Under the pieces are notes generated by a model, which was given only the letters and a program-made list of their open reading frames with translations, had not been told where the DNA came from and did no database searches. Source: a virus. Taken from it: a stretch of DNA of 64,000 nt. Location: IMG/VR virus record IMGVR_UViG_3300036827_000193, positions 1 through 64,000 of that record; one strand, 5' to 3'. Shown here in pieces: positions 2,759-45,073 of the stretch (positions within the stretch are counted from its first letter, which is position 1; each line of letters starts with the position of its first letter). Position numbers and translations under genes: made by a program.

Positions 2759-4825
2759 ATGGAAACGGACATGCTGCATTCGGCATGGCATGCCCTGCTG
2801 ATCATTCTTGATCCAGTGCGATTGGCGTATCTGTTCGGCGGCGTTTGCATGGGCCTTTCGCTCGGCATCCTGCCCGGCATCGGCGGGATTGCCGGTACCG
2901 CCCTGCTGCTGCCCTTCACCTATAACCTCGATCCGCCGACCGCCTTCGCCCTGCTGCTGGGTCTCGGCGCGACGACGACCACCGCCGACCCGATATCGGC
3001 GATCCTGTTCGGCGCGCCCGGACACGCGGCGTCCGCGGCGACAACTCTCGACGGCTATCCGATGACCCGGCGCGGCGAGGCCGGCCGGGCGCTCGGCGCC
3101 TCCTATATGGCGGCCTTGATCGGCGGATTGTTCGGCGCCGCGCTGATGGCCGTGGCGTTGCCGGTGCTGCGGCCCATCATCCTCTACATCGGTTCGCCGG
3201 AACTGCTCGGCGTCGCCGTGTTCGGCATTTCGATGGTGGCCGTGCTGTCGGGCAACTCGCCGCTGCGCGGGCTGACCACCGCCTGCTTCGGCATGATGCT
3301 GGCGATGATCGGCACCGATCCGCAGTCCGGCACCCTGCGCTGGACGATGGACAGCCTCTATCTCTGGGACGGCTTGCCGCTGGTGCCGCTGACGCTCGGG
3401 ATATTTGCGCTGCCCGAACTCTGCGACCTCGCGATCGGCCGCATGGCGATCGTGGCCGAAGGCCAGACCATCGACACCAAGACCGGCATGATGCTTGGCG
3501 TGAAGGATTGCATGCGGCATTGGTTCCTGATCCTGCGCTGCTCCTGGATCGGTTCCGCGATGGGCGCGATCCCCGGCATCGGCGCCTCGGTGATCGACTG
3601 GATTTCCTATGGCCACGCGCTGCGCACCGAGAAAGGCGCGCAGGAAAGCTTTGGCAAGGGCGACGTGCGCGGCGTCATCGCGGCGGAGAGCGCCACCAAT
3701 GCGCGCGAAGGCGGCGCGCTCGTCCCCACCGTCGCGTTCGGCGTGCCGTCGAGCGCCGGCATGGCGATCCTGCTCGGCGCCTTCCTCATCCATGGCCTGG
3801 TGCCCGGACCAGAGATGCTCACCAAGCATCTCGACATCACCTATTCGATGGTGTGGAGCATCGCCATCGCCAACATTCTCGGCTCGGGCCTGTGCTTCGC
3901 GTTCAGCGGCCAGCTCGCGAAGATCGCGACGCTACGCTACACGCTGTTCATGCCGGGCGTGCTGAGCCTGGTTTACATCGGTTCGTTCGAGGCGTCGCGG
4001 AACTGGGGCGACCTGTTCTCGCTGATGTTCTTCGGCGTGTTGGGCTGGGCGATGAAGCACTTCAAGTGGCCGCGGCCGCCACTGGTGCTCGGCTTCATCC
4101 TCGGCGACGTGCTCGAACGCTACATGTTCATCTCGATCGAGCGTTACGGCGTGTCGTGGATGTTGCGTCCCGTCGTCGTCGTCATGTTCACCATGGCGGG
4201 TCTCAGCCTGCTGCGGCCGTTGCTGCAGGACATCCGCATCCATGGCGGCCTCAAGAAGATGGTGTCCGAGTTCGGTCATCCCATCTTCGCGAGCGACAAT
4301 CTGTTCCCGACGGCGCTGCTGTGCCTGTTCAGCTGGATGCTGTTGCAGTCGTTCCAATGGAGCTTCGCGGCCCGCATCATCCCGACCATCGTCGGCGTGG
4401 GGGCACTGCTGTTCTGCACGCTCAGCCTGCTGAACGAAATATTCGGTCTGCACGAACGCGATGGCGGGAAACCAATAATTGGTGCCGACGGCAAGGTGAT
4501 CGAGCAAAAGATCCACATGGACATTGCATCCAAGACCGCGCATCTGCCCGGCAATGTCATTCTCGCGCGCGGCGGCCTGTTCTTCGGCTGGATGCTCAGC
4601 TTCATGGCTGTCATGGCTGTGATCGGGCTCATTCCGACGGTACCGATCTTCATCATCTCCTACATGCGGTTCGAGGGCCGCGAGCCATGGAAGATCGCCA
4701 TCCCGATGGCCGCCGTCATGGTGCTGCTGATCTACGTCGTGTTCGATCAACTGCTGGCGATTCCGTGGCCGCCGACCTTGGCGGGCATGTACTTCCCGGC
4801 GCTGAAGTTCATTCCGAGCGTGTGA
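2759..4825 (+). CDS. tctA: Tripartite tricarboxylate transporter permease TctA with C-terminal TctB-like fusion
   Basis: GILPGIG, TTLDGYPM, GVIAAESATNA and PTVAFGVPSS motifs; many TM helices; 688 aa. Confidence 0.9.
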   Translation: METDMLHSAWHALLIILDPVRLAYLFGGVCMGLSLGILPGIGGIAGTALLLPFTYNLDPPTAFALLLGLGATTTTADPISAILFGAPGHAASAATTLDGYPMTRRGEAGRALGASYMAALIGGLFGAALMAVALPVLRPIILYIGSPELLGVAVFGISMVAVLSGNSPLRGLTTACFGMMLAMIGTDPQSGTLRWTMDSLYLWDGLPLVPLTLGIFALPELCDLAIGRMAIVAEGQTIDTKTGMMLGVKDCMRHWFLILRCSWIGSAMGAIPGIGASVIDWISYGHALRTEKGAQESFGKGDVRGVIAAESATNAREGGALVPTVAFGVPSSAGMAILLGAFLIHGLVPGPEMLTKHLDITYSMVWSIAIANILGSGLCFAFSGQLAKIATLRYTLFMPGVLSLVYIGSFEASRNWGDLFSLMFFGVLGWAMKHFKWPRPPLVLGFILGDVLERYMFISIERYGVSWMLRPVVVVMFTMAGLSLLRPLLQDIRIHGGLKKMVSEFGHPIFASDNLFPTALLCLFSWMLLQSFQWSFAARIIPTIVGVGALLFCTLSLLNEIFGLHERDGGKPIIGADGKVIEQKIHMDIASKTAHLPGNVILARGGLFFGWMLSFMAVMAVIGLIPTVPIFIISYMRFEGREPWKIAIPMAAVMVLLIYVVFDQLLAIPWPPTLAGMYFPALKFIPSV

Positions 4826-8569: not shown

Positions 8570-8644
8570 GCCGGGTTAGCTCAGCGGTAGAGCAGCGGTT
8601 TTGTAAACCGTTGGTCGGGAGTTCAATCCTCTCACCCGGCACCA
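8570..8644 (+). tRNA. tRNA-Thr: tRNA-Thr (anticodon TGT)
   Basis: Acceptor stem GCCGGGT/ACCCGGC, D arm AGCTCAGCGGTAGAGC, anticodon arm CGGTT-TTGTAAA-CCG region, GTTCAAT T loop, encoded CCA. Confidence 0.97.
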
Positions 8645-40242: not shown

Positions 40243-41001
40243 TTAGACCGTTTCCGGCCCGACCCACTGGACCTTGACGCGCGGGATGCCGCCGCCAGCG
40301 CCGGAGCCGGCGCCATTCGCCGCCAGCGTCACCACGACGACGAGCCACATGATGCCGCCGTTGGTGTAGGTGCCGGTGAAGGTCTTGGCGACCTCGATGT
40401 ACTGGAAGTTGGTATCGATCGCCGTGATGGCCATCAGGTTGGCGTTGGCGTTGGTGCCGCCGCCGACGATGCCCTGGGCCGAGACGAGTTGGCCCGTGAC
40501 AAGGTCCTTGAACGGCTGCTGGCCAGCCGCAAAGATGCGGCAGTGGCTGGAGTCGACACCCTGGACCACGGATGTGATCACCCAGCCGCTCGCCGGGATG
40601 CGGCCCGCCGGCACAACCGTGCCATAGGAGCCGCCGGCGATGCCCTTCGACGTCAGCGGTCCGCCGTCGAGGACGACGTGACCGGCGAAGTCGCTGAGCG
40701 CGCGCGGGGGATTACCCGTGATCGCTTCGGCGCTGGCGCGGTAGGGACCAACGCCATAGCCCGTTGCGGTCGCGGTGCCGAGCCGGTAGCGCCCGTAGGT
40801 GAAGTCACCCGACGAGATGCCAACCATGAGCTCGGGCACCGTGGTGGTGCCGACCATCGAGGTCGTGACATCGACCATCAGGTCGCGCACGAACCCGACT
40901 TTGCCGCGTGGGCCGACGATGTAGTGGACCACGCTTGCCGCAGCCCAGCCGGTCGATTCGGCCCACTGCTGCAGTTCGACGTCGGAGTTTTCGTATGCCA
41001 T
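40243..41001 (-). CDS. Putative capsid-associated (decoration) protein
   Basis: Directly after the capsid gene, GGAGG RBS, Gly/Thr-rich beta composition. Confidence 0.65.
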   Translation of the reverse strand: MAYENSDVELQQWAESTGWAAASVVHYIVGPRGKVGFVRDLMVDVTTSMVGTTTVPELMVGISSGDFTYGRYRLGTATATGYGVGPYRASAEAITGNPPRALSDFAGHVVLDGGPLTSKGIAGGSYGTVVPAGRIPASGWVITSVVQGVDSSHCRIFAAGQQPFKDLVTGQLVSAQGIVGGGTNANANLMAITAIDTNFQYIEVAKTFTGTYTNGGIMWLVVVVTLAANGAGSGAGGGIPRVKVQWVGPETV

Positions 41002-41016
41002 GTTCTGTTTCCTCCG

Positions 41017-43710
41017 TTACGCCGCGCTGTCCCACATCACGACCCGCGAGTTGAGCGAGTCGGTGTGGACCAAACCAAAACCGCCGAGGTAATTGATTGT
41101 GTTCACCCGTCGTCGCTAACGACGGGCCGAGACGACCTTTTTGTAGGTCAACTCTGCTGGCTCTTTCGAACCAGTCCAGACCATATCTTCAGTGACGCAA
41201 GTTGCTTTTTTGCGTTACTGCTGGGGGCTTCGGTGCGCTTGCACCTACGAGCTTTCGCTCTGGTCGTTGAAGCTTCCTCTGCGTGAGAGGCTCGCCTGCT
41301 GATTATCCAATCTCAGAACTTTTCAGGCCGTCACGCCTGCGGTCGCCCGCTACGTTGTGGCGTTCTGAGCTTTAGGAACTTCCAGCAATTCTCCCAGTTT
41401 TTACGCCTAGCATTATTCTCTACCAGGCGATGCCCCGGCTGCGACCGTAGTCGCCCGGGATCTTCGCGCGGACTTCCTCGGGTACGCACACGGCTTCAGT
41501 GACCGTGTCACCGCCGCAGAAGAACGCCCAGGAAGACAGGCCATTCGTCCACGGTTGCGCAACGCCGCTCCACGGATCGTACGACGTGGCATTCGCCGCG
41601 CCGCCCTTGGGAACGAACGTCTGCTCGATGAAGCGGCAGGACTCGTACCTGCCGATTTCGCCGTTGAAGATGTGCGCGAGACCGGTCTCGGTGTACTGGT
41701 GGATGGTCTCGAGCGAATTCTTGAAGTTGCGATACGTGGTCGGATGCGACACCGCCACGTAGTCATCCGCCGTGAACGGCGGAATGTTTCGCTCCTTCAT
41801 GGTGTCGACGATCGCCTTGACGTGCCCGGTACCGAGCGCGACGTTGTTCGTCACGGTTGCGGTGCCGTTGGTGTCGAGGTTGATGGCGGTCGTCGAAGTG
41901 CTGGAAGACGGCTCGGCGCGCAGCAGAGTGTTCTTGAACTGCAAGAACGACTCGATGTCGAAGTATTTGCGCGCGTCGTCCTTCAGCGTTTTGTCGATGA
42001 TCGCGGCGACCTGATGCTTCGCCAGCGCGACCAGCTTGCCGGTGTAGGGAACGCTATTCCCAGCTTCAAAGCAGAATTGTTCTTTGCCGCGGCTCTTTAT
42101 CCGCAGCCTCAACCGCTCGCGCGATTGCTCAGACTATCTCTTGCAGATTACTGTGATCTGCCCGGGCGCTCGTGGTCGGATTATTCTTTCGTCACCGACT
42201 AGTCGTTACGCCTTCCGCGCCCCTGGGGCTCTCGCCTTACATGCGCGACTTGGCTCGGGATTGTCTCTGAGAGAGGTTCCCCGAATTCACCCGGTGTTTC
42301 ACCTTACGCGGCGAGCGCGAAGGTGCGGCCTGTGTTGACCGTAAGCTGGTGTTGCAGCATGACGAACCCGGTCTCCGGGATCGGGGCGCTTTCGTCCAGC
42401 CGGCGGCCTTGCGTGCCGAGGTTGGAATAAACGTCCCAGTTGAACTTGTCGCCGCGGTTGAGGCCTTTCTTGGTGCCATCCTCGGCGTCGCAGAGCTGCC
42501 GCATCTTGGTCAGCGGCTGCACCTGCTGGCGGAGCACGTCCGACAATTCGTCGGAGTACATGAATCCGCCCTCAGTGGGGACTGCCTTTTGTTCGCACGA
42601 TCCCGTTTGTGGATCGTTCCTGCATCTTTCAATGCAGAGCAGACTATATCTTGAAATCTTCTGCCGGTATCCCACATACATCCCTAGCGGGGAAACACAT
42701 GCGCATCACCAAATCACAACTCGTCGCCCTCTACGCAAAGAGGACTGACGATCAAATCGGCAAGCTGTTCGGCGTAACCGGCCATTCAGTTGGCGATTGG
42801 CGACGGCATTATGGCATCCAGCGCAAACCAAGAGAGACTTACAACAAGTATACCCTTGATCGCGATTTTTTCGCGAAGATTGACACCGAAGAGAAGGCGT
42901 ACGCGCTCGGTCTTATAGCGTCCGATGGATGGGTGGCCCGATCTGGAAAGCAAGTGAGCCTTGCTCTTCAGGTTCGAGACCGGCACATCCTTTATGATCT
43001 TCGACGCGCCCTGAAGTCGGATGCTCGTGTCTTCGACAAGGCGAGAGGCGGCTTTGCCGGCTCTGGCCCGCGGAAACAGATTACCTTCGACAGCAAGAAG
43101 CTGGTCGCCGATCTGGCGCGCTGGGGTGTCATCCCCGGAAAATCAGTCACCCTCCGCTACCCCCGTATTCCGAAACATCTTGAGTGCCATTTTGCGCGAG
43201 GACTTTTTGACGGGGATGGGCACATTCGCGCCCACCCGAAAAAGCTCTTTTATTTTCTTGGCACTTCCGACCTGATCGACGGACTACGAAAGTCGATCAT
43301 CCGACATACGGGCGCGGCGCTCGCCAAGTACGAGGCCGTGGGCTGTTGGCGGATTTCTGGATACGGTGGCAGCGTCGCGGTGCTGCGGTGGATGTATGAA
43401 GATGCGACGATCTGCCTTCGCAGGAAGCATCGCGTCTTCTTGAGGTACTGGAAGTGATGTCCTGGGCGCTCGTGGGACCGATTATCGTCGGGGTCTCACA
43501 GTCCTAGTCGTTGAACCTTCCGAGCTACAGTTTCCCCTGCTCGGCTTGGCTGCTGATCGGCCAATCCCTGATCTTTTCGCGCATTCACGCTCGCCCTCTC
43601 GGGCCACGTTGTAGCGATCAAGGCTCTAAGGCTGTTCCAGCAATTCACCCAGTGCGCACTCTGAACTCGCATTCAGAGGGGGGCTAAGTTACCCACAATT
43701 GTCCTGCCAT
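41017..43710 (-). CDS. Major capsid protein (N4-gp56-like family), about 330 aa, four exons: complement(join(41017..41093,41422..42071,42338..42584,43692..43710))
   Basis: Joined frame reads MAGQLW/AVPTEGGFMYSDELSD...QHQLTV/FEAGNSVPYTGKL...GEIGRYE..RF...IPGDYGRSRGIAW/YYLGGFGLVH...VVMWDSAA*; AAAGGA RBS; follows the scaffold gene. Confidence 0.88.
41094..41421 (-). mobile_element. Group I intron 3 (328 nt, no ORF; two hairpins between P7 and P3, IA2-like); apparent terminal A
   Basis: P1 CGCCUGGU/GCUAGGCG with U.G; P AAUUGCUGGAA, Q AAUCAGCAG, R UUCAACGACCAG, S GAAGAUAUGGUCU (compensatory GACCA/UGGUC). Confidence 0.9.
42072..42337 (-). mobile_element. Group I intron 2 (266 nt, no ORF, canonical splice sites)
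   Basis: P1 CGGU|C/GGCCG with U.G; P AAUUCGGGGAA, Q AAUCCCGAGC, R GUAACGACUAG, S AAGAGAUAGUCU; ends ...AAUUCUG; removal restores GT|C TTT GAA. Confidence 0.92.
42585..43691 (-). mobile_element. Group I intron 1 (about 1107 nt) with an antisense LAGLIDADG ORF in the P8 loop
   Basis: P2 CUCUGAA/UUCAGAG, P3 CUGGGU/GCCCAG, P AAUUGCUGGAA, Q GAUCAGCAGC, R GUUCAACGACUAG, S AAGAUAUAGUCU, P9 UGCAU..GAAA..AUGCA; boundaries uncertain by 1 nt. Confidence 0.88.
42699..43457 (+). CDS. Double-motif LAGLIDADG homing endonuclease with N-terminal HTH
   Basis: AYALGLIASDG and HFARGLFDGDG; N-terminal DQIGKLFGVTGHSVGDWRRHYGI; GGGGA RBS before ATG 42699. Confidence 0.9.
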   Translation: MRITKSQLVALYAKRTDDQIGKLFGVTGHSVGDWRRHYGIQRKPRETYNKYTLDRDFFAKIDTEEKAYALGLIASDGWVARSGKQVSLALQVRDRHILYDLRRALKSDARVFDKARGGFAGSGPRKQITFDSKKLVADLARWGVIPGKSVTLRYPRIPKHLECHFARGLFDGDGHIRAHPKKLFYFLGTSDLIDGLRKSIIRHTGAALAKYEAVGCWRISGYGGSVAVLRWMYEDATICLRRKHRVFLRYWK

Positions 43711-43744
43711 CTGACAGGGTCCTTTCTCATGAATGCCCGTGCCG

Positions 43745-45073
43745 TCACAGTCCGATGGCCTGGCCGCGCAACTTCGCTCGTCGCGCCTTTTCGGCGTTGA
43801 CGATTGAGGAGCGATCCCGCGGTTGCGGGGTCGCTTGCGGGTCGGGCCGCGGAGCGGCGGTGCGGGCGGGTTGTTGCGGTATTGCGGCCCGGCGTTGGGT
43901 GCGGTCGACGGTGACGTCGATGCGCGGTGCCGCACGAGGCGGCGTCGCCGGGTCGTCTGGGGTTTGCGTCTTGACCCCTTTCCATTCCAGGAAATTGTCC
44001 CGCGCCTGCTCAAGCAGAGCCTGCGGCGTGAGGACGTTGAAGCCATTCGCCCGGTAGAACCGGTGGGCGTTGGCGATGTCGCCTGGTGTTGGCGGCAAGC
44101 CGTCTGGCCTGATCCTGGCGGGGTCGAGCCCGAGCGCCGTGATGTCAGCGAGCTGCAATTCGAACATCTTGGATTCGATTGCGGCGCGAGCCATCGGGTC
44201 TTTGGCGAGATCGGGGTGGCTGTCCTGGAAGTCCTTCAGCGTCTTCGCAGCCCGAGCGCCTTCGTCTCTGAGGCGTTGCTGCAAGAGTTCCTGCTGGACC
44301 GTGTGCGTGGTCGCTGTGTCGATGGTGTTTCGCAACAGCTCGCGCGCTTCCGAGGGATCGCCAAACTGGATCGTTTCAATCAGCTTGCCGTACGGGTCCT
44401 CCTGGTTTGGAGGCTCCGTCGTCGCAGCCGGTTGATCCGATCCTTGCGTCCTGGTGTCCGGCGTGGTGTTCGCCGGAAGGTCGGGACGCGCGACCTTGTT
44501 ACGGGCCTGTTCGAGGATGCCGTCGAACTCCTTGAGCTTCGACTTGGCCTCGTCGAGGATGTTTTCGGCCGCGAGAGATTTCTGCGCATGCGCGACAATC
44601 TCTTCGAGCGGCAATTCCTGTTCCTTGCCGTGAACCTTGACCTTGATCCGCGGCGGCGCTGCGGGCGCGGGCTCGGGCGCGGGATCGACGTCATCGGCCG
44701 GCGGCTGCAGGTCGTCCTGCGGCGCCTGCGGGGCGGGCGGCGGTGCGGCGATCTCGGGCGGCAGGCCGCTGCGCGCAAAGTCGCTGACGTCGTCGCGATC
44801 GGCATCGGCGTCGGCGGTGCGCTCGGTGCGAAACCGCGCCGAGATGGCGTCGCGCTTGCGGTCGAAGGCGCTGACCGCGGGCGGCGTCTCGCGCGGTGCG
44901 GGCTCGGCTGCCGGTTGCGGTGCGAGTGGCGGGACGGCGGGCCCGGGATCCTGGGGCGCGCCATCGGCGACGACGTCGAGCGCGGCGGCGTTGGTCTCGC
45001 CCGGCTGAATTCCCGCCTGCTCGCGTGAAGCCGCTTCCACACGCTGCGCCTCATGGCTCGGTGTCGTGACCAT
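43745..45073 (-). CDS. Capsid scaffolding protein
   Basis: Acidic Pro-rich N-terminus, KVKVHGKEQELPLEE, helical core, basic C-terminus; directly upstream of the capsid gene. Confidence 0.8.
   Translation of the reverse strand: MVTTPSHEAQRVEAASREQAGIQPGETNAAALDVVADGAPQDPGPAVPPLAPQPAAEPAPRETPPAVSAFDRKRDAISARFRTERTADADADRDDVSDFARSGLPPEIAAPPPAPQAPQDDLQPPADDVDPAPEPAPAAPPRIKVKVHGKEQELPLEEIVAHAQKSLAAENILDEAKSKLKEFDGILEQARNKVARPDLPANTTPDTRTQGSDQPAATTEPPNQEDPYGKLIETIQFGDPSEARELLRNTIDTATTHTVQQELLQQRLRDEGARAAKTLKDFQDSHPDLAKDPMARAAIESKMFELQLADITALGLDPARIRPDGLPPTPGDIANAHRFYRANGFNVLTPQALLEQARDNFLEWKGVKTQTPDDPATPPRAAPRIDVTVDRTQRRAAIPQQPARTAAPRPDPQATPQPRDRSSIVNAEKARRAKLRGQAIGL

Follow-up and report, generated by a model that had tools for sequence, protein, structure and literature searches.

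A phage capsid gene whose reading frame points to a group I intron 5' splice site without the U·G wobble

Group I splicing is held to have one strict sequence requirement, the U·G wobble at the 5' splice site, and this wobble guides intron annotation as well as the design of trans-splicing and circular-RNA ribozymes. The group I intron considered here (intron 1) appears to depart from this rule. It is the first of three group I introns that interrupt the sole major capsid gene (minus strand, 43710-41017) of the phage in IMG/VR virus record IMGVR_UViG_3300036827_000193; all positions refer to the window, i.e., the stretch of 64,000 nucleotides (nt) that was analysed (positions 1 to 64,000 of that record). 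The case that intron 1 is cut between G43692 and U43691 is slightly better than even, judged from the frame of the capsid gene and from comparison with related introns, and such a cut would leave a G-C pair, rather than a U·G wobble, at the splice site.

Three natural systems are close enough to be compared with this locus. The td intron of phage T4 (thymidylate synthase, I-TevI) is, like intron 1, a group I intron in the gene of an essential phage protein, with an endonuclease open reading frame (ORF) in a peripheral loop. The original prediction held that intron 1 starts much as the td intron does, and the T4 record bears this out: td reads ...TTCTTGGGT and then TAATTGAGGCC, and its exon 1 measures exactly 549 nt (in frame) if it ends at GGGT. 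The td exon thus ends ...UUGGGU and the intron starts UAAUUGAGGCC, compared with GGG(U)-UAACUUAG-CC in the window and GGGU-UAAU-GCC in a related phage (L007, see below). However, td has two U's, and its wobble U stays in the exon, whereas the window has one U, which the frame puts in the intron. The endonucleases also differ, that of the window being of the LAGLIDADG type and antisense, and that of td being GIY-YIG and sense. A second system comprises 72 bacterial tRNA-Leu introns (Leu.3Cg) that, to judge from exon mapping, have C(-1):G at the 5' site (Williams 2020, bioRxiv 10.1101/2020.01.27.920355). These form a natural class in which a Watson-Crick pair replaces U·G at the 5' site, although the exon C faces the usual guide G there, whereas in the window the exon base would be G, a purine, with a guide C and a U·G adjacent. 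Third, the ND5-717 intron of hexacoral and corallimorph mitochondria has no terminal G, yet its exons are correctly ligated in vivo (PMC6545197). This is a natural breach of a splice-site rule taken to be universal, and as such it bears on intron 1 as well as on intron 3 of that capsid gene, which ends in A; however, it concerns the terminal G at the 3' end and not the 5' wobble, and the intron is organellar and probably dependent on host factors. No report of a group I intron with G at position -1 was found in the literature.

On the minus strand, the capsid gene of the window begins ATG(43710) GCA GGA CAA TTG TGG G-T-AACTTAGCCCCCC, where GGG occupies 43694-43692 and T lies at 43691. The 3' end of intron 1 reads ...GAACAAAAGG (GG at 42586-42585) and is followed by CA GTC CCC. 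An exon 1 of 20 nt, running through U43691, is out of frame when joined after either terminal G, whereas an exon 1 of 19 nt joined to CAGTC yields TGG GCA GTC (W-A-V-P) and keeps the frame. The original prediction had stated that the 5' site is non-canonical if the capsid frame is kept, and its sequence and frame arithmetic were reproduced exactly. Its further proposal, a cut one base earlier that gives an intron ending in G with a G-C pair at the site, is also supported by comparison: in both the window and L007, among the junctions that keep Trp6, the only one in frame with a terminal G is that in which the exon ends GGG, the intron runs U...G, and exon 2 starts with C. Given the frame and a terminal G, the last exon base before intron 1 would therefore not be the U of a U·G wobble. 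The other group I rule, a terminal G placed by P9.0 and/or P10, finds its base in G42585.

The frame itself is well anchored by relatives of the capsid gene. More than 60 intron-less relatives start M-x-G-Q-x-W-(A/S/T/G)-V-x-x-E-G-G, with Trp6 in every one listed and A, S, T or G at residue 7, and one of them (L080) has exactly TGG GCA GTC. This shared N-terminus indicates that the ATG at 43710 and its frame are the real start of the gene, and a Shine-Dalgarno-like AAAGGA lies upstream of it. When the four exons are joined, the product of 330 amino acids aligns without gaps, from end to end, with the intron-less relatives at 87-91% identity. The capsid pieces have matches in 370 viral contigs, with identity of up to 91%, and they share 47-49% identity with capsid proteins from Escherichia phage PTXU04 and from several Vibrio phages (tblastn, exon 3 among them).

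A homologous intron with the same insertion site (site 1) and the same antisense endonuclease is present in IMGVR_UViG_3300050119_000072 (L007), which reads ATG GCA GGG CAA CTC TGG G-T-TAATGCCCCC ... GAACATCAG-CG ATA CCC. The two phages are well diverged in the rest of the gene: the proportions of synonymous and nonsynonymous differences (pS and pN) are 0.65 and 0.07 in exon 2, and exon 3 has a synonymous divergence (dS) of ~0.9 with a nonsynonymous-to-synonymous ratio (dN/dS) of 0.09. Exon 1 differs at three nucleotides and encodes an identical peptide; over its first 14 nt, there are 2 differences vs. ~7 expected at the synonymous rate (P ~0.004). Since exon 1 is thus conserved beyond neutral drift and encodes the same peptide, it is likely translated as MAGQLW and joined in frame. 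In the ribozyme, helices P2 and P9.1 show compensatory changes between the two phages.

As a basis for placing the 3' splice site of intron 1, protein homology was used to set the boundaries of further introns in the gene family. These boundaries show a U before the intron and a G at its end in window intron 2, the second intron of L007, both introns of L010, both of L049, and those of L060 and L074; in L064, where the 5' boundary was read, a U precedes the intron. As the boundaries set by homology are canonical in about eight other introns, the method can be trusted here. The landmark for the 3' site is P9.0, in which, across the family, bases 3-4 of J7/9 (which follows the P7 strand UAGUC/UGGUC) are paired to the two bases that precede the last intron base. 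Of 11 introns, 7 have Watson-Crick pairs at both positions, a count rarely reached when the tails are shuffled among introns (P ~0.0007). In intron 1, P9.0 is CU/AG (C42639-G42586, U42638-A42587), which makes G42585 the last base and C42584 the first base of exon 2. In the site-1 intron of L007, it is UG/CA, which makes the single G before CG ATA the last base, and both pairs have changed compensatorily relative to the window.

These pairs bear directly on a reading that combines a canonical 5' cut, after U43691, with a 3' cut that follows C42584, so that the junction reads TGG GTA GTC (W-V-V) and the intron ends in C. This arrangement preserves the frame of the window (GTA GTC) and of L007 (GTG ATA), distant relatives include some with V as residue 7, and P9.0 of the window still pairs (C-G plus U·G). 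Nonetheless, it is very unlikely, as the last base would be C in both phages although the G-C pair of P7 that binds G looks ordinary, and P9.0 of L007 would fall to one wobble and one mismatch vs. two Watson-Crick pairs with a terminal G. A further candidate, in which exon 1 ends at TGG and the first terminal G is used, was rejected, since it would make the L007 intron end in A and does not allow P9.0 to form. Other features did not help to place the site. P10 pairings are weak and inconsistent under every reading of intron 1 and were left unused as evidence, and a GAACA motif that the introns share lies at varying distances from the 3' site, so that it provides no ruler for the splice site.

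If C42584 is the first base of exon 2, the frame leaves two lengths for exon 1, namely 19 nt (ending at G43692) or 16 nt (ending at U43695). The shorter one corresponds to a cut three bases upstream (TTGT|GGG), which in both phages offers U at -1, the terminal G42585 and an intact frame, and would give MAGQL-S-VPTEGG without the tryptophan. However, that U faces a C (UxC) in P1 of both phages and no alternative guide pairs with it; moreover, the product would be one residue short and would lack the Trp6 of all the intron-less relatives listed. Such a cut is therefore highly improbable.

The 19-nt exon gains weight from a sister intron in an unrelated capsid gene. This intron (L216; IMGVR_UViG_3300005471_000256, 2986-4246, minus strand) was found with a 26-nt pattern of the P2/P3/P4 region that has four free positions; it carries an antisense LAGLIDADG ORF, as in the window, and is inserted after the second base of codon 10 in a gene resembling Pelagibacter-phage capsids. 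The exons meet there as GTG AT|G CAA, which compares with GTA ATG CAG (A-I-V-M-Q) in the intron-less L218 (1469-1510). Since wobble, terminal G, P9.0 and frame all agree in L216, its intron is canonical. When the P1 regions of the window, L007 and L216 are aligned from P2, the L216 cut faces the guide base that precedes P2 by 5 nt. The L216 pairs from this point are U·G, A-U, G-C, UxC, G-C and UxC, with an 8-nt loop that starts with U; in the same register, the window has G-C, G-C, G-C, UxC, G-C and UxC, also with an 8-nt loop starting with U, and L007 is alike. Thus, the two introns share the P2/P3/P4 core, the antisense LAGLIDADG gene, a guide separated from P2 by 5 nt, a loop of 8 nt with U as its first base and the flank AUUGUG (exon bases -3 to -8, identical in L216 and the window), but L216 has U·G at the cut, whereas the window has G-C at that position of the helix. 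The U·G of the window (43691·43684) corresponds to the first intron pair of L216 (U-A, in the P1 extension). As aligned, the cut that the frame requires, after GGG, is at the position homologous to the verified canonical splice site of L216.

Taken together, these comparisons favour the following course of events for a cut after G43692. Intron 1 would be a working group I intron, excised as an RNA of 1107 nt running from U43691 to G42585. Exon 1, of 19 nt, would end at G43692, which would form a Watson-Crick pair with guide C43683, so that no U·G would lie at the cut and the 43691·43684 wobble would sit one step inside the intron. Attack would fall on the phosphodiester between G43692 and U43691, the terminal G42585 would be positioned by P9.0, and the first base of exon 2, C42584, could pair with guide G43684 in P10. 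Ligation would produce TGG GCA GTC, i.e., MAGQLW-A-VPTEGG, the usual N-terminus of the capsid family, with MAGQLWAVPTEGGF, complete or lacking its initial Met, as the expected N-terminal peptide. To serve a capsid gene, splicing would have to reach a sufficient efficiency, perhaps assisted by a protein. The chances are about even that this ribozyme lineage picks its 5' site by position within P1, at a fixed distance from P2, tolerating G-C there, and that the U·G further in is ignored or is structural only.

It could be argued that the GGG on which the frame conflict depends is itself an artefact, or that the gene is broken by a one-base insertion, an assembly error or decay of the phage. Intron 3 also breaks a rule (terminal A), and a second irregularity within the gene could be a sign of decay. 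However, an independently assembled Logan contig (run X1, possibly the source sample; depth ~25) shows 0 differences over 40900-43800, and a contig from another study (X4, record 21), which holds a partial variant, differs at 10 positions and leaves 43673-43710 unchanged, TGGGT included. The same TGGGT is present in L007. The original prediction had offered a one-base G insertion or sequencing error (ancestral TGG T|CA) as an alternative, with GG instead of GGG at 43692-43694 as its signature; GGG is what the ~25x X1 assembly holds, and this assembly, together with conservation in L007 and X4, excludes the error. Decay fares no better: all capsid exons are open, with dN/dS of 0.07-0.09 vs. L007, the source contig (81,387 bp, an IMG/VR virus also present in soil metagenomes) is rated complete by CheckV, and the ribozyme helices show compensatory changes, among which those of the X4 variant in P2, at 43672/43665 and 43671, turn A-U into G-C and U·G into C-G. 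A broken gene is thus scarcely credible.

The alternative that deserves most discussion is a canonical cut after U43691 with ligation at G42585, in which the extra base (UGG GUC AGU ...) is rescued later, by +1 ribosomal frameshifting, by internal initiation at Met15 or by a minority of mis-registered splicing. We regard it as unlikely, and it retains its share of probability because several facts weigh against a cut at G-C. According to established biochemistry, the first step strictly requires a G:U pair whose U belongs to the exon strand (PMC6155759), and in the Anabaena intron, reversing the G:U pair abolished the reaction (PMC12355055). A good U·G lies one base along the same helix of intron 1, where a standard ribozyme would be expected to cut; this 43691·43684 pair is the one that known group I biochemistry would use (PMC6155759), and the P1 that includes it is the minimum free energy (MFE) fold. 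In J4/5 and J5/4, which form the wobble receptor, no change relative to relatives is common to the two site-1 introns. Furthermore, the sample of site-1 introns consists of two full copies (window and L007) and one partial copy (X4), the register argument draws on one sister intron (L216), and a sequence-run search for 41000-43760 listed DNA contigs and no RNA run, so that no RNA junction was seen. A conserved Met15 with GAGG 8 nt upstream, in both the window and L007, would suit internal initiation. On the other hand, no frameshift signal is common to both phages except UGG GUC, a stop that lies downstream in the 0 frame of the window is absent from L007, and a low-efficiency event is poorly suited to a major capsid protein. 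Conservation of the exon-1 peptide MAGQLW (P ~0.004, as above) would be pointless unless it is joined in frame, and every relative conserves the first 14 residues of the protein.

Two ways of starting the protein elsewhere were also considered. Re-initiation at a GTG brought into frame by splicing, which the original prediction had listed, would depend on an intron ending at G42586 and on the GTG at 43696-43694; it was rejected, as L007 has A and CTC TGG at these places. An upstream ATG (43728-43730, minus strand, first base 43730, 20 bases before the capsid start) would give MRKDPVRWQDNCGS-VPTEGG after canonical splicing and was rejected, as L007 is without ATG, GTG or TTG in that frame; the occurrence of this ATG in the canonical-splicing frame looks like chance.

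If the cut after G43692 is true, intron 1 would be a natural group I intron that has no need for U·G in the first step, and it would show that the rule can be relaxed. Selection would have kept it in an essential gene of diverged phages, although it is cut at a G-C pair beside an unused U·G, for which L216 would be a matched canonical control of how the cut site is chosen. In addition, boundaries drawn by the convention "U before, G at end" can be one base off and make a good capsid gene look frameshifted. The features of the locus are collected in Table 1.

Table 1. Coordinates of the capsid gene, its introns and the elements of intron 1 in the window
Feature	Positions	Strand	Remarks
Capsid exon 1	43692..43710	-	19 nt, ATG GCA GGA CAA TTG TGG G; ends at G43692 under the favoured reading; MAGQLW matches relatives
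Intron 1, group I	42585..43691	-	1107 nt; first base U43691, last G42585; RF00028 50.7 bits; homologue in L007
P1 hairpin	43681..43694	-	G43694-C43681, G43693-C43682, G43692-C43683, U43691·G43684; loop AACUUA; MFE fold agrees
P2 hairpin	43660..43677	-	UCUGAAU GCGA GUUCAGA; compensatory changes in L007 and X4 variant
LAGLIDADG homing-endonuclease ORF	42699..43457	+	antisense to intron 1; Pfam PF14528
P7 3' strand	42646-42642	-	UAGUC; aligned with L007
J7/9	42641-42638	-	UGCU; contains the 5' half of P9.0 (C42639, U42638)
P9	42637-42620	-	intron 1
P9.1 hairpin	42617-42597	-	compensatory changes in L007
Intron 1 3' tail	ends 42585	-	GCGAACAAAAGG; P9.0 3' half A42587-G42586, terminal G42585
Capsid exon 2	42338..42584	-	CA GTC CCC ... 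ACG GT; homology to intron-less capsids
Intron 2, group I	42072..42337	-	Rfam 42.4 bits, E 9e-9
Capsid exon 3	41422..42071	-	tblastn to phage capsids and to relatives
Intron 3, group I	41094..41421	-	Rfam 68.1 bits
Capsid exon 4	41017..41093	-	AT TAC CTC ... TAA

Assignment of the three introns to group I follows from Rfam model RF00028, which scores intron 3 highest and intron 2 lowest (68.1, 50.7 and 42.4 bits for introns 3, 1 and 2, respectively). The match to intron 1, over 42620-43700 (minus strand), lies just above the gathering score of 50 (E 6e-10, whole window). P3, P4, P6 and P7 of its catalytic core are readable in the covariance-model alignment, and its G-binding site, P7 GACUA/UAGUC with a G-C pair, is identical in L007. 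It should be noted that the gathering threshold misses intron 2 (42110-42323, minus strand) and also the T4 td intron (L228, 7200-9150), and that the Rfam alignment misplaces P1 of introns 2 and 3. Boundaries taken from the Rfam model alone are unreliable here.

The ORF antisense to intron 1 matches PF14528 (E 3.2e-7, 31 bits vs. a cut-off of 22.5) and contains the motifs LGLIASDG and RGLFDGDG. It is 71% identical in protein sequence to the intact ORF of L007, with dS of ~1.9 and dN/dS of 0.11, which indicates purifying selection, and 31 homologues were found in a large protein collection, about 15 of them at 56-84% identity. The antisense layout is kept in the window, L007 and L216; because the ORF lies on the strand opposite to the intron, it cannot be translated from the capsid transcript. 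Intron-less candidate target alleles (TGG GCN/TCN GTC) exist. The exon flank of L216, AUUGUG..GCA, resembles the insertion site in the window, which suggests that the intron may have moved between unrelated capsid genes via a similar endonuclease target. Searches for further site-1 introns with DNA patterns, in viral, metagenome and genome contigs, returned only the L007 contig or chance matches in unrelated coding DNA (L085 is one such match), and searches with the endonuclease protein and its alignment returned only the L007 contig, genomes giving distant LAGLIDADG genes of 25-31% identity. One contig of the X4 run joins 42653 to 43503, skipping 849 bases that approximately correspond to the endonuclease ORF. 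The shorter side of this join spans only 23 bases, which makes it weak evidence; the contig could represent a form of intron 1 that lacks the ORF.

The other two introns of the gene differ from each other at their 3' ends. Intron 2 is canonical, with U42338 as the last exon base, G42072 as the last intron base and AG/CU as P9.0, and its junction, LTV-FEAGNSVPY, fits the relatives exactly. Intron 3 has a canonical 5' site (U41422·G), but its terminal base is A41094 rather than G. This base is fixed by the AW-YY-LGGFG junction, which is invariant in relatives, together with P10 (AUUA/UAAU plus CUC/GAG) and P9.0 (GA/UC). The G-C pair in P7 of intron 3 looks normal, and its homologue in L060 shares this hairpin, followed by a 12-nt tail, but ends in G. 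A41094 is covered only by the possible source run X1.

Group I introns are also carried by the capsid genes of relatives L007, L010, L049, L058, L060, L064 and L074, at no fewer than seven sites (after codons 6/7, ~35, 53, ~80, ~90, 96, 306 and 309; the boundaries in L058 did not resolve cleanly). The capsid gene is a hot spot for introns. Elsewhere in the phage genome, a tRNA gene is located at 8570-8641 of the window (plus strand; Rfam 69.5 bits).

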